DNA of 64,000 nucleotides. Origin: Nevskiales bacterium (GTDB lineage Bacteria > Pseudomonadota > Gammaproteobacteria > Nevskiales > JBOICV01). Shown one piece after another: positions 44,797 to 51,561 of this stretch (position 1 is its first letter; every line of letters starts with the position of its first letter). Where the stretch lies: contig JBOICV010000176.1 of NCBI GenBank assembly GCA_050740255.1, forward strand, positions 3,959 through 67,958. The letters run 5' to 3'. The position numbers and the translations under genes are program-made. The notes below the pieces were generated by a model. It made no database searches, had not been told where the DNA came from, and worked only from the letters and a program-made list of their open reading frames with translations.

Positions 44797-46350
44797 ATGG
44801 CTTCAACACAAAAACTCCATTTCCGGCTGCATTACCTCTTGGCGGGACTCGCGCTGGTTGTCGCGGCCGTGCTGTGGGCACAGACACCTCTGACGCTGGA
44901 CGATGCCTTCATCTCTTACCGGTATGCGCGAAACCTGGTTCAAGGTCAGGGCCTGGTCTTCAACAGCGGCGAGTTGGTCGAAGGCTACACCAATTTTCTA
45001 TGGGTACTGATCGCCGCGTTGGCGATTGCATGTAAAGCCGATCCGTTCGCGGCGACGCGGCTGTTGGGAGTGCTCTCCTACGGAATTGGAGTTCTGTTCT
45101 GCGCGCAAGCCTTGTACGCGACGGCACCACAGCGCATTTCCAGCCTGCTGCTCGTGGCATTTTTGGGTATGTTGCTGCTGCCCGATGGCTTGCTGGCCGC
45201 CGTCGGCACCGGCCTAGAAACCGCTTTCGTCGGCACGCTGGGCATTCTGCTCGGCTTAAGCCTGTTTGTTTGGTCTGAACGAATCCGCGCCGCATATCTC
45301 ATAGCCGCAGGCACAGCGCTAATCCTGCTCTTGACGCGGCTCGACGCCGTATTGCCAGTGGCCGCAGCGGGCTTGGTGTTCTGGCTTAGTCGCCTGCCAA
45401 ATGGCGTGCGCTCTGCAACTTGGCACACCGCCGTACAGTTCGCCATTCCGGCGCTGGGGCTGATTATCTATTTGCTCTGGAAAATCAGCTATTACGGCGA
45501 ACTGCTGCCCAATACCTACTACGCCAAGGGCGGCGATCTCTGGTCCTGGGAGCAAGGAAAGGCTTATCTGCGGTCGTTCCTGTCCAGTAATCCTCAAGTT
45601 GCAGCCGCTCTGCCGCTGGCGTTTCTGGCTGCTTTTGCCGCTGACGCGCCCACATGGCGCAGATTCGCTCAATATGCGTTGCTGACCGTCCTGCTGCGTT
45701 GCGCTTACGTTGGGAAAGTCGGCGGGGATTTCATGCAGTATCGCTTCATCTGGGAAACTTATCCGCTGCTTATTTGCGCTGCCGCGATCGGGCTGGGCAA
45801 GCTGGCGAGCCTAACAGAACCGCTGTGGGCCTTTGCTCTGGTATTAGTCTGCCTGGTATTGAGTGCGCAGCCCGCGACCCTGGACAATAAGTTCGGACAA
45901 CAGTGGCCGGACGAGATGGATCGCTATGCACGCGAAGGCCAGCAGGTTGGCAAAGCGCTGTACGCGGTTCTGCCAGAAAACACGGTCATTGCTACCACGC
46001 TGGTAGGCACCTTGGGTTACTACACTAACCTCAAAATCGTTGATCAGTGGGGACTCACTGACAGGTTTATAGCCCACATGCCCGTTTCTCGTATCGTGAC
46101 GCGCGGCCATGTCAAATTCGCGCCACAGGAATATCTACGTTCGCGCGGTGTCAATCTGTATATTGCTCACCCGCAACTGTGTTCCTGCAGTCAACCATGT
46201 ACCGAGGCCTTGCCCAATGTATTCATACGAGTGGAACGCGACTTGTGTGTGCGCAGCTGGTACTTCGGGCAGACGGACGATTTGACGCGTCATTTCTGCA
46301 GCCACCCCCAAAACTTCGTCCTGCATAACATCATCTGCCCGAGCTCCTGA
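44797..46350 (+). CDS. polytopic membrane protein, GT-C-fold glycosyltransferase-like (DD motif after TM1)
   Basis: 517 aa. TLDDAFISYRYARNLVQGQGLVFNSGELVEGYTNFLW after the first helix recalls the DDx loop motif of GT-C enzymes (e.g. Emb-type arabinosyltransferases). About 11 further hydrophobic helices. Confidence 0.5.
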   Translation: MASTQKLHFRLHYLLAGLALVVAAVLWAQTPLTLDDAFISYRYARNLVQGQGLVFNSGELVEGYTNFLWVLIAALAIACKADPFAATRLLGVLSYGIGVLFCAQALYATAPQRISSLLLVAFLGMLLLPDGLLAAVGTGLETAFVGTLGILLGLSLFVWSERIRAAYLIAAGTALILLLTRLDAVLPVAAAGLVFWLSRLPNGVRSATWHTAVQFAIPALGLIIYLLWKISYYGELLPNTYYAKGGDLWSWEQGKAYLRSFLSSNPQVAAALPLAFLAAFAADAPTWRRFAQYALLTVLLRCAYVGKVGGDFMQYRFIWETYPLLICAAAIGLGKLASLTEPLWAFALVLVCLVLSAQPATLDNKFGQQWPDEMDRYAREGQQVGKALYAVLPENTVIATTLVGTLGYYTNLKIVDQWGLTDRFIAHMPVSRIVTRGHVKFAPQEYLRSRGVNLYIAHPQLCSCSQPCTEALPNVFIRVERDLCVRSWYFGQTDDLTRHFCSHPQNFVLHNIICPSS

Positions 46351-49011: not shown

Positions 49012-49082
49012 GCAAGCTCTCCTGAAAGACGTCCGGCGCGCAGTATAGCCTCGGCATGAAAACTTCATGCCAGGGGGCTAGA

Positions 49083-50912
49083 ATGACCAGCAAACCCAAG
49101 GAAATTCATATGGCCGGTGATGAGGCAGGACAGAACAGCAGGCCGTTCGGTGGGCTGGCGATATTGGCCGGAATCCTGTTCGTGACGGGTGCTGTGGCCG
49201 CAGGTTTGTGGGCCTATCGCGATCAGGTGACGCCGGGCGGCACTCTTGAGGAAACGCTGGCCGTGCTGGAAGATCCCAGCGCCCAGCCCAAGCGCCGCAA
49301 ACCAAAACGTGAAACGGTGGCTGAGGAAACCGCGGCCGGGGAGCTTGGCGCGGACGCACAAGTTGCGGCCGGCGCAGAACCACCACCCGCGGCCGTACCG
49401 GCCAGCACTGGGCTTTATCCGCCGGAAGCCACGGCGGAAGCCGCCGCGCACCTGTGCTTCTTCTCGTTCAACAACCCGGTCGAATACCAGCAGTTCAAGC
49501 GCTTCATCGCCTCCATACAGCCGAATACGCCGATCAAACTCAGCGTGGCCGAGTACATCGCCAACGACGCCGATGTCGAGGACGCTTTCCTCGCGGTGCT
49601 GAACTCCGGCGTGAAATGCGACGGCGTGGTGCTGTCCGGTCACCATACCGACGAGTTTTACGGCGATCGCAGCTCCGGCGACATGGACTTCGATTTCCTC
49701 GAGGAGCAGGCCTGCAATCCGCGCCACGCGGCGTGGTTTTCACATGTGAAGGCGCTGTGGCTGCAGGGTTGCAATACCGTCAAGACCAAGATGCTCAATG
49801 ACGAGGTGGATTCGGACGAGCGCATTCACGGCTCGCCCTTGCCGATGATGACCGGCCTGATCCGCGTCAACGATCTCGAGGACGGGCTGGAAGACGCGCG
49901 TGACCTGCTGGAGGAGAATCTCAACGACGAGAATCTGGTCAACGACTATATGCGGATTTTTCCCACCGCCACGGTGTTCGGCTGGAGTTTCATGGCGCCC
50001 GGCGAGAAAGCCGGCTCGCATTACTCGATGCCTTATCACGTGGCGCAGGTGTCGCATGTGCTGAATCCCGCGGAGGAGTTTTTCGCCAATCCAATGAAGA
50101 GCGAGATTCCGGCGGCGTCCGCGCAGCATTACGCCGCGGCGCTATACGGCATGCTGACGCGCCCGGCCACTGCGGGCGCCGATCCGATTCCCGGCATGAA
50201 CGAGGACAGTTTCATCCTCGGCTGGCGGCGGCACGGCGATTTCCGTTTCAAATGGGCGCTGGACAATCCAGACCTGCGCGGCTATCACTCGCTGTTGAAC
50301 GCGGATAACGAGATCAATCGGCAGCTCAAGGGACTGAATTGCCTGCTGCAGGCGATCGACGACAAGCGAGTCAATGGCGAAAGCGTCGCGTCCGTCGCCG
50401 ATTACGCGCTCGCTCAGGAATCGCTGATACCTTTCACCAGTTACACGCTCGCCGCGCTGGCGCGGAACTCCGGCGGCAGCTTGCGCGCGCGGATGCAGGA
50501 CAACGCCACGCTAATGGGCTATCTGCAACGCGCTGCCGCGGCTGAGGGTTATCGCGGCAACGACGCCAGGAGCCTGCTGGCTTATCTGCGACCGGCGGAT
50601 GCGGATCAGGCGGTGGGCAGTGCTGCAGTATCGGAAGATGTAAGCACTGCAGCCAACGCGCCGGCCGAAGTTCCGGCGCAGCCTGCGTCGGCGGATGAAG
50701 CCGAGCCTCCGCCGGTTGATGATGCAAGCGTACCAGCGGCAGAGTCGGCTTCTGAGCCTGAGCAGGCCGCGCCGGCGCCGGTGGTAAGGCCGCCTGCCGC
50801 AAACGAGGTGAGAGCACCGCCGCGCGAGGCTACCCGCTCTGCCAAGCGCAAGCGCGTAACGCTCGCGCCGGTGCTCGGCAGCGAGGACGCCGTCTCCTAC
50901 GACGAAGATTGA
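49083..50912 (+). CDS. membrane-anchored hypothetical protein with caspase-like His/Cys arrangement and Ala/Pro/Glu-rich tail
   Basis: One TM helix (GGLAILAGILFVTGAVAAGLWAY). HLCFFSFNN strand; VVLSGHH then, 43 residues on, LWLQGCN. Start uncertain (49056, 49083 or 49110). Confidence 0.6.
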   Translation: MTSKPKEIHMAGDEAGQNSRPFGGLAILAGILFVTGAVAAGLWAYRDQVTPGGTLEETLAVLEDPSAQPKRRKPKRETVAEETAAGELGADAQVAAGAEPPPAAVPASTGLYPPEATAEAAAHLCFFSFNNPVEYQQFKRFIASIQPNTPIKLSVAEYIANDADVEDAFLAVLNSGVKCDGVVLSGHHTDEFYGDRSSGDMDFDFLEEQACNPRHAAWFSHVKALWLQGCNTVKTKMLNDEVDSDERIHGSPLPMMTGLIRVNDLEDGLEDARDLLEENLNDENLVNDYMRIFPTATVFGWSFMAPGEKAGSHYSMPYHVAQVSHVLNPAEEFFANPMKSEIPAASAQHYAAALYGMLTRPATAGADPIPGMNEDSFILGWRRHGDFRFKWALDNPDLRGYHSLLNADNEINRQLKGLNCLLQAIDDKRVNGESVASVADYALAQESLIPFTSYTLAALARNSGGSLRARMQDNATLMGYLQRAAAAEGYRGNDARSLLAYLRPADADQAVGSAAVSEDVSTAANAPAEVPAQPASADEAEPPPVDDASVPAAESASEPEQAAPAPVVRPPAANEVRAPPREATRSAKRKRVTLAPVLGSEDAVSYDED

Positions 50913-51436
50913 ATATCACCCGTGTTGCGGCCGGTTTCGGCCTGTGGTTCTCGCTCGCACTGTCTCTTGCTGTTCATGCCGCGCCGCCAATAGAAACCAA
51001 CCACGAGCCGCTGCGGGCCGATCGCGTGGTGCTGCGCAAAGCCGACCGTCTGCTGGAGCTGTACAACGGCGACGAGTTGCTGAAAAGTTACACTATCTCC
51101 CTGGGCCGCAATCCGGTCGGCCATAAGCAACAGCAGGGCGATTCGCGTACGCCGGAAGGTGAGTATGTGCTCGACTGGCGCAACCCGCGCAGCCAGTTCC
51201 ATCGCTCGCTGCACATCTCCTATCCCGACGCCGAGGACCGCGCCAGCGCCAAAAAGCGCGGCGTTGCGCCCGGGGGTGATATCTTTCTGCATGGCTCGCC
51301 CAATGGGCTCGCCGGTTCCGAGGAGCTGCTGTCCGGCATGGACTGGACTGACGGGTGCATCGCCGTGACCAATCGCGAGATCGAAGAGATCTGGCGGGCA
51401 GTGCGCGACGGCACGCCCATCACCATACTTCCCTGA
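50909..51436 (+). CDS. L,D-transpeptidase (YkuD) family protein, secreted
   Basis: Signal peptide. ...IFLHGSPNG...WTDGCIAVTN catalytic His/Cys motif. TTG start in a TTGA overlap with the upstream stop. Confidence 0.85.
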   Translation: MNITRVAAGFGLWFSLALSLAVHAAPPIETNHEPLRADRVVLRKADRLLELYNGDELLKSYTISLGRNPVGHKQQQGDSRTPEGEYVLDWRNPRSQFHRSLHISYPDAEDRASAKKRGVAPGGDIFLHGSPNGLAGSEELLSGMDWTDGCIAVTNREIEEIWRAVRDGTPITILP

Positions 51437-51536: not shown

Positions 51537-51561
51537 ACGCGCCTAGCGCGGGGGATTTTTC

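Follow-up and report, generated by a model that had tools for sequence, protein, structure and literature searches.

An uncatalogued family of exported proteins with a near-invariant His-Cys pair in caspase-like order, encoded beside a small YkuD-type enzyme in a Nevskiales bacterium

The gene and the layout of its product

A 64,000-nucleotide stretch of genome from a Nevskiales bacterium (contig JBOICV010000176.1, positions 3,959 to 67,958 of the forward strand, here called the window) carries on its plus strand a gene for a membrane-anchored protein of about 600 residues, followed immediately by a gene for a small YkuD-type enzyme. The protein belongs to a family that is uncatalogued, and we lean slightly towards reading it as an exported thiol hydrolase, in which a His-Cys dyad like that of the clan CD peptidases is carried on an alpha/beta core stabilised by disulfides. 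An original prediction, made from the letters of the DNA, had proposed a caspase-like or CHAT-like cysteine peptidase acting in the periplasm together with an L,D-transpeptidase. The features discussed below are collected in Table 1.

When read from its first ATG the open reading frame (ORF) spans 49056..50912. The NCBI record of an identical protein (P0001, 100% identity, from a Nevskiales metagenome-assembled genome, MAG) starts at 49083 and describes a hypothetical protein of 609 aa, and residue numbers throughout refer to this version. The annotated start is probably not the true one: ATG 49110 (Met10) is to be preferred because an AAGGAA Shine-Dalgarno sequence lies 6 nt upstream of it and close homologs begin at the position that aligns with Met10. 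A sigma-70-like match (9/12) at 49056-49084 would put the start of the transcript just 5' of this AAGGAA ribosome binding site. At the other end of the gene the stop codon overlaps the YkuD start codon (TTG 50909-50911) in an exact TTGA junction, as originally read, and this TTG is the sole in-frame start codon that gives the YkuD protein a signal peptide.

The sequence elements on which the original prediction drew are all present, namely the transmembrane (TM) helix, the acidic and Ala-rich linker, the quoted motifs and the Ala/Pro/Glu-rich tail. The hydrophobic strand HLCFFSFNN occupies residues 123-131, and is followed by CDGVVLSGHHTDEF at residues 179-192, which contains His187, by VKALWLQGCNTV at residues 223-234, which contains Cys230, and by TVFGWSFMAPGE at residues 297-308.

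Table 1. Features of the His-Cys gene, its product and the adjoining YkuD gene, in window coordinates (pLDDT, predicted local distance difference test; pTM, predicted template modelling score; KD, Kyte-Doolittle hydropathy).
Feature	Position	Strand	Basis and remarks
Gene of the His-Cys domain protein	49083..50912	+	609 aa from ATG 49083 (NCBI) or 600 aa from ATG 49110; stop TGA 50910-50912
Shine-Dalgarno-like AAGGAA	49098..49103	+	6-nt spacer to ATG 49110; canonical
Predicted N-terminal signal-anchor TM helix, residues ~22-48	49146..49226	+	Helix in model; hydrophobic window KD 2.49
Disordered Ala/Pro/Glu-rich linker, residues 49-111	49227..49415	+	pLDDT <50; composition
Alpha/beta core of catalytic type, residues 112-405	49416..50297	+	Two models; pLDDT 87, pTM 0.85 (core-only)
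Putative disulfide Cys125 (49455-49457) with Cys179 (49617-49619), structural	49455..49619	+	Paired loss
His187 codon, proposed general base, motif L-S-G-H-H	49641..49643	+	Kept in 154/155; just after strand 3; aligns with caspase-3 His121
Putative disulfide Cys211 (49713-49715) with Cys420 (50340-50342), joining core to helical module	49713..50342	+	Paired loss
Cys230 codon, proposed nucleophile, motif W-L-Q-G-C-N-T	49770..49772	+	Kept in 159/161; aligns with caspase-3 Cys163
C-terminal all-helical, repeat-like module, residues 406-516	50298..50630	+	Helices 410-516 in model; in relatives it recurs or is prolonged as HEAT repeats
Disordered Ala/Pro/Glu-rich tail, residues 517-609, ending in KRKRVTLAPVLG-acidic	50631..50909	+	pLDDT <50; A22, P15, E11 of 93
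Small exported YkuD-domain enzyme, 175 aa, signal peptide, H-G...D-G-C-I	50909..51436	+	PF03734, E 3e-20
Weak terminator-like hairpin with T-run, 3' of the YkuD gene	51538..51560	+	Consensus match only; 2 found vs 2.9 expected

An exported family with a near-invariant His-Cys pair

Direct assignment of the protein by sequence was tried and rejected. Pfam (E<=1), NCBIfam and PDB (phmmer) held no match to the window protein, hmmsearch of PDB chains with the family profile (E<=10) returned nothing, and Pfam run on 23 family members was equally empty. Literature searches for an already described family found none. This bears out the earlier view that the protein could be assigned to no named family. 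A word-indexed search returned 23 close relatives, and an exhaustive hidden Markov model (HMM) search of 1.84 billion cluster representatives (50% identity) recovered 770 at E<=1e-3 and 200 at E<=1e-30. Among species-representative genomes 44 loci were recovered, about 34 of them in Bdellovibrionota (Bdellovibrionales, Bacteriovoracaceae and Oligoflexia), often with several paralogs per genome. Nine more are from Gammaproteobacteria (Nevskiales, Salinisphaerales, Halioglobus and one unclassified), and a single locus (L042) is from an unclassified 'Proteobacteria' MAG. On one Bdellovibrionales chromosome (OY843585; locus L031, 4537-10655) two paralogs stand in tandem as ORFs of 829 and 1214 aa with overlapping stop and start, and other Bdellovibrionota genomes (CBDBMJ01, OZ240230) hold two to three dispersed copies.

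The longest members reach 2090 aa, and Pfam scans of 61 long and 10 divergent members found HEAT-type helical repeats as the only recurrent fused domains, with no peptidoglycan-binding or other informative domain among them. HEAT_2 was detected in 10 of 55 long members, and HEAT matches also occur in P0018, P0023 and P0121; the window protein itself gives no HEAT match (PF13646/PF02985). Positions ~285-405 of the family profile, which cover the helical part (window residues ~395-510), match again once or twice downstream in L006, L018, L031, L038 and others, and the C-terminal helical part can therefore be regarded as a repeat unit continuous with HEAT-like arrays. Three metagenomic 'minimal' members (P0151, P0160 and P0167) are without the ~40-residue helical insert found between strands 4 and 5, and carry the motifs S-G-H-H-R and W-L-Q-G-C-A-T-S.

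A hydrophobic segment, either signal or anchor, precedes the domain in 121 of the 134 members with complete N-termini, and lipoboxes (LSAC, LTAC, IGC, GGC) are present in the orthologs P0007, P0009, P0010, P0011 and P0024. The domain is therefore extracytoplasmic, and the membrane-anchored, periplasmic location first suggested for the window protein is well borne out. To judge from its sequence, the window protein keeps an uncleaved signal anchor where its orthologs have lipoprotein or signal peptides.

Conservation was counted over ~150-168 aligned divergent members, down to about 20-25% identity. The glycines preceding the two residues of interest, G186 and G229, are 100% conserved, His187 is retained in 154 of 155 sequences and Cys230 in 159 of 161, so that the motifs picked out in the original prediction are not chance resemblances and its check of His and Cys conservation in homologs came out in its favour. 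The family consensus reads L-S-G-H-H-T around the histidine and W-L-Q-G-C-[RN]-T around the cysteine. Further residues are kept almost as strictly, including E134 (99%), E157 (98%), W301 and P306 (98-99%) and S128 and N130 (96%); Ala or Thr can stand in for Ser128, which closes strand 1. The glutamine before G-C (Q228) is found in 85%, and about 6% of members have Phe, Asn or Gln at the position of His188.

Four other cysteines, C125, C179, C211 and C420, are conserved at 95-99%, and their rare losses are paired. C211 is lost in four sequences, and C420 is also lost in 4/4; C125 or C179 is missing in only two sequences, and both are replaced together in 2/2. Cys230 is the only conserved cysteine without a covarying partner of this kind, and its two losses coincide with changes at the histidines, once with His187 to Lys and once with the neighbouring His188 to Gln. 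From these paired losses we infer two disulfides, C125-C179 and C211-C420, as would be expected in an exported protein, leaving a single free Cys230 that would be coupled to His187.

Predicted structure and the comparison with caspases

An AlphaFold2 model built from a 23-sequence alignment has pLDDT >90 over most of residues 112-510, and a second model was made of the core only. The strands fall at residues 121-128 (b1), 152-157 (b2), 181-185 (b3), 224-228 (b4), 297-301 (b5) and 398-401 (b6). Along the chain the modelled order is b1, helix, b2, helix, b3, His187, a hairpin (191-198), helices (203-221), b4, Cys230, a helical insert (253-292), b5, A-P-G, helices, b6 and the helical module (410-516). 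The near-invariant residues all lie at the C-terminal ends of strands, with S128, N130 and E134 after b1, E157 after b2, G186-H187-H188 after b3, Q228-G229-C230-x-T232 after b4, and W301 followed by A-P-G after b5. This edge of the sheet is the usual active-site side of alpha/beta enzymes. In the caspase-hemoglobinase fold the catalytic His follows strand 3, the Cys follows strand 4 and a hairpin comes after the His, while the sheet order in clan CD is 2-1-3-4-5-6 with strand 6 antiparallel. Both models place His187 after b3 and Cys230 after b4, and their separation of 43 residues lies within the 40-50 residues of clan CD; the corresponding distance in caspase-3 is 42.

Structural comparison also ranks caspases high. 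With the full-length model Foldseek returned caspase-3, -8, -11, -4 and CED-3 from PDB at probabilities of 0.57-0.80. With the core model CED-3 was matched at E 2.6e-2 and probability 0.93 (root-mean-square deviation, rmsd, 5.1 A over 130 columns) and caspase-8 at 0.60-0.72. In BFVD the top match of the core model was an executioner caspase of Spodoptera frugiperda ascovirus (E 3.5e-3, probability 0.97, TM-score 0.35, 257 columns), and a caspase-domain protein of Terrestrivirus came at rank 7. Caspases thus have the highest Foldseek probabilities in both libraries, and trimming to the core lowered the E-values about tenfold, still short of significance.

For profile comparison a human caspase-3 query was verified against PDB (635 bits over residues 1-277). 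To this were added the catalytic domains of caspase-1, -6, -7, -8 and -9, and the set was enriched with database caspases to a template profile of 18 sequences. The diversity of this template is low (Neff 3.5) because the enrichment search returned only vertebrate caspase-3, -6 and -7. In hhalign the family reached Prob 0.3% against caspase-3 alone. A core profile with P0151 as master aligned to the caspase profile with a score of 29.2 (P 0.0012) over 171 colinear columns and exceeded 60 of 60 block shuffles (mean 17.9, sd 2.0, max 23.4), a score attained only after this choice of master had stripped out lineage-specific insert columns. The alignment begins at strand 1 and extends as far as the helix that follows strand 5; it pairs LCFFxLNN with LCIIINN, L-S-G-H187 with L-L-S-H121, F-x-G with I-F-G, W-L-Q-G-C230 with I-I-Q-A-C163, and A-P-[GS] with A-P-G. 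The full-length alignment, though non-significant, is likewise in register at the catalytic residues. From the cysteine to A-P-S there are about 39 residues in the minimal members, and 38 in caspase-3.

The resemblance to caspases (Peptidase C14, clan CD) therefore includes the spacing and placement of the His and Cys, the short beta-hairpin after the His, the hydrophobic 'LC##x#NN' strand 1, the Q-x-C context and A-P-G after strand 5. There are also differences. Glutamates appear to stand here where caspases have the arginines that bind the P1 aspartate, the family carries a ~40-residue helical insert between b4 and b5 and ~95 residues between b5 and b6, it is exported and putatively disulfide-bonded, and its fusion partners are helical repeats, not CARD or DED domains. 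Other clan CD peptidases, those with acidic S1 pockets, are gingipain R/K (C25), clostripain (C11) and the metacaspases. With these the family has in common a bacterial, secreted or periplasmic setting and a His-Cys dyad on a similar alpha/beta core, and an acidic residue set near the nucleophile is predicted for it. The C11 peptidase iotapain is among the weak Foldseek matches (probability 0.28), but none of these groups has a sequence match or a significant structural match to the family. In architecture only, a caspase-like domain joined to HEAT-, ARM- or TPR-type repeats in one chain is also known from CHAT, separase and Raptor types; those are cytoplasmic or eukaryotic whereas the present family is exported, and it has no match to Pfam CHAT (PF12770).

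Several results weigh against a caspase relationship and should be set beside these likenesses. The caspase layout was read from the order of secondary structure along the chain and not from coordinates. Foldseek gave nothing at E<=1e-3 in either PDB or BFVD, with TM-scores of 0.2-0.36 and rmsd often >9 A, and flavodoxins, flavodoxin fusions, pyridoxal kinase and SGNH domains scored in the range of the caspases or at lower E. The full-length family profile scored 22.8 against the caspase profile, compared with 23.2 for the reversed template, and 5 of 100 block shuffles reached 22.8. Even for the core profile the hhalign Prob is just 19%, and the reversed caspase template scored 26.9, close to the real 29.2. 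A Pfam scan of the 23 family members at E<=10 found no Peptidase_C14 (PF00656), CHAT, C11, C13 or C25. Finally, the clan CD context H-G and Q-A-C-x-G is kept in part: the Q and a small residue before the Cys are retained, while His187 is followed by His or Thr in place of the typical Gly, and a Gly precedes it instead. Of the peptidase originally proposed, then, the invariant His and Cys, their positions after strands 3 and 4, a confident model with caspases at the head of the Foldseek probabilities, and an in-register profile alignment have stood, and a significant structural or profile match has not been obtained. The relationship to caspases is consistent with these data yet sub-significant, and we take it as suggestive. 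As flavodoxin and SGNH scores are comparable, a safe wording for the fold is a three-layer core, flavodoxin-like/caspase-like, with no close relative of solved structure.

That comparability is the starting point of the alternative that the protein is a flavodoxin-like or Rossmann-like exported enzyme unrelated to clan CD, using either Cys230 with His187 or Ser128 with a downstream His, and acting as an amidase, esterase or acyl-transferase on peptidoglycan or lipid. Such proteins share a three-layer alpha/beta/alpha core with parallel strands; flavodoxins and their fusions are the lowest-E PDB matches (E 1e-3 to 4e-2), the SGNH peptidoglycan O-acetyltransferases PatB and OatA appear in PDB at probabilities of 0.38-0.51 and SGNH esterases in BFVD, Ser128 is well conserved, and the profile links to caspases do not rise significantly above the reversed control. 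However, FMN-binding motifs are absent, as are the SGNH blocks (GDS...G...GxND...DxxH) from the family consensus, and Ser128 tolerates Ala or Thr where His187 and Cys230 are ~99% conserved. The order of His then Cys, their spacing, their positions after strands 3 and 4 and the hairpin fit caspases and not flavodoxins, and it is caspases that lead the Foldseek probabilities. On balance we consider this alternative unlikely. SGNH-hydrolase and GATase/DJ-1-type readings were themselves ruled out by motif order.

Two other explanations dispense with a thiol nucleophile. His187, His188, Cys230 and E134/E157 might coordinate zinc or another metal, in a metallohydrolase or a sensor, and a nearly invariant cluster of His, His, Cys and Glu at the C-terminal sheet edge is what would be looked for, such residue sets being typical metal ligands. 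Against this, His188 is replaced in a proportion of members, no similarity to metalloenzyme families was seen in Pfam or PDB, and the structural neighbours of highest probability are thiol proteases, which makes metal binding very unlikely. Slightly more remote again is a non-catalytic scaffold or pseudo-enzyme, built like eukaryotic Raptor from a caspase-like domain and helical repeats that follow it, whose helical module and disordered tails would serve to organise envelope proteins. It would account for the recurrent joining of the alpha/beta domain to HEAT-type repeats, and for the long disordered linkers and conserved short C-terminal motif of the window protein. Yet His187, Cys230 and the glycines around them are kept near-absolutely over more than 150 sequences, and both sequences without Cys230 have also lost a histidine of the dyad region, which argues for selection on catalysis.

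The YkuD neighbour and a proposed function

The downstream gene was correctly recognised as YkuD-type in the original prediction. Its ORF matches PF03734 end to end (profile positions 3-146/146) at 73.7 bits, with a cut-off of 23.4, and has the family's H-G...G-C active site (FLHGSP...DWTDGCIAV). It differs from the familiar L,D-transpeptidases in being a small, single-domain exported form whose nearest named relatives, all at low scores, lie elsewhere: the weak best match in NCBIfam is LdtF/DpaA/YafK (NF040599; 42.9 bits, below the cut-off of 365), and the nearest solved structures are 8ikr and the LD-carboxypeptidase Pgp2. Because these nearest named relatives are a DpaA/YafK-type amidase and Pgp2, the enzyme may trim or cleave rather than cross-link.

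A YkuD gene lies directly downstream, overlapping or with a gap of <=12 nt, in the window and at L001, L003/L011, L010, L012 and L054, where the family proteins are 38% to 72% identical to the window protein. The surrounding genes in the window are of housekeeping type: a 517-aa membrane protein comes first, then pyruvate kinase, GFA and, on the minus strand, enoyl-CoA hydratase, and after the His-Cys gene and YkuD follow MatE, a fatty-acid desaturase and TetR. At a Halioglobus sp. MAG locus (L036, 2896-5544) the order is reversed, with YkuD first, 39 nt upstream of a 705-aa HEAT-bearing family member. This YkuD is an ortholog of the same small enzyme (phmmer E 2.4e-55), the surrounding genes are unrelated, and the family member is Bdellovibrionota-like and only 32% identical to the window protein. 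This arrangement suggests either that the two genes move together as a unit or that they were gained jointly by horizontal transfer.

Whether the two products act together is a separate matter, and we give somewhat less than an even chance to the explanation that their adjacency is inherited synteny without functional coupling. The flanks are syntenic in Nevskiales-type orthologs, with pyruvate kinase and/or enoyl-CoA hydratase upstream and MatE and the desaturase downstream where the contig extends (window, L001, L003, L010, L054), and the YkuD adjacency there could therefore be inherited. It also fits this account that a YkuD neighbour is lacking in most of the family, paralogs from the same MAGs included: none was found at the gammaproteobacterial paralogs L007/8, L013-L016 and L055, at L040, or at any of the ~34 Bdellovibrionota loci, which are the majority of the family. 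Pointing the other way are the Halioglobus locus, where a divergent member keeps the same YkuD in reversed order among unrelated flanks, and the intergenic distances, which are -8 to +39 nt for all YkuD/family pairs. The partnership with an L,D-transpeptidase that was first put forward thus holds as a gene linkage, in one gammaproteobacterial branch and in the rearranged Halioglobus case, and does not extend to the rest of the surveyed loci. Clustering of neighbours across the 44 genome loci gave no conserved Bdellovibrionota partner except a CpaF-like ATPase in five.

Taken together, the preferred reading is of an inner-membrane-anchored periplasmic enzyme, built from a signal anchor, a disordered linker, an alpha/beta core of ~290 residues, a helical repeat-like module and a disordered tail. 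Cys230 would serve as a thiol nucleophile activated by His187, as in the clan CD peptidases (caspases, gingipains, legumain and clostripain), and the C125-C179 and C211-C420 disulfides would stabilise the fold after export. The substrate is likely to offer a basic side chain or free amine, since by alignment and topology the invariant E134 and E157 appear to stand at the positions of the P1-binding arginines of caspases. Recruitment of a protein substrate is probably the task of the helical HEAT-like module. In the gammaproteobacterial lineage the gene would be co-transcribed, and probably translationally coupled, with that of the small exported YkuD enzyme, and a shared target in the cell envelope, such as a peptidoglycan stem peptide or a peptidoglycan-linked protein, is plausible. 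Of all this, the data establish that the family exists, that it is conserved and exported, and how its secondary structure and its genes are arranged, while the disulfides, catalysis, kinship with clan CD, specificity and a partnership with YkuD are inferred.

A broader proposal, which we offer tentatively and with the chances against it, is that these proteins are cysteine peptidases or transpeptidases of a new, exported family resembling clan CD. In the predatory Bdellovibrionota, paralogs with HEAT recognition arms would act on envelope or prey proteins, and in a few Gammaproteobacteria the enzyme and the small YkuD would form a two-cysteine-enzyme module cleaving or re-attaching peptidoglycan-linked proteins or stem peptides. 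The logic of the active site is already known. What sets the family apart is its absence from curated libraries, its export, the two putative disulfides, the G-H-H motif, the predicted acidic pocket, the HEAT fusion and the bias to predatory bacteria.

If the dyad is catalytic, this would be an uncatalogued family of secreted cysteine hydrolases that comprises 770 or more clusters at 50% identity and has no relative in Pfam, NCBIfam or PDB. It is concentrated in predatory bacteria, a group whose secreted hydrolases are as yet incompletely understood. The range of the caspase-type active-site architecture would then also take in the oxidising periplasm, on a disulfide-stabilised scaffold, and the YkuD operon would provide a concrete link to the remodelling of peptidoglycan or peptidoglycan-bound proteins in Gammaproteobacteria. 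If the dyad is not catalytic, what is left is a conserved domain of unknown function, of value for annotation and no surprise.

Some smaller observations may be added. An ORF for a CpaF/VirB11-like secretion ATPase, its identity judged by eye from the N-terminus, lies within 4 kb of the family gene at L026, L032, L043, L051 and L053; no other neighbour was seen to recur beyond the gammaproteobacterial clade. The polytopic 517-aa membrane protein upstream of pyruvate kinase (window 44797-46350) has no Pfam match at E<=1e-3. In the window protein the loop directly after Cys230 contains D-E-V-D (residues 240-243, 49800-49811), which is ordered in the model and sits where caspases have their inter-subunit cleavage linker; this may be a coincidence. 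The acidic stretch around it is conserved in gammaproteobacterial orthologs as N-D/E-x-V/L-D-x-D/E-D/E-R-I. The C-terminus (50850-50909, residues ~590-609) carries a basic-then-acidic motif, KRKRVTLAPVLG followed by acidic residues, that the five closest homologs share. In another group of orthologs the protein closes with P-W-Y-[LM]-N-E instead, and these tail motifs may be short linear interaction motifs.

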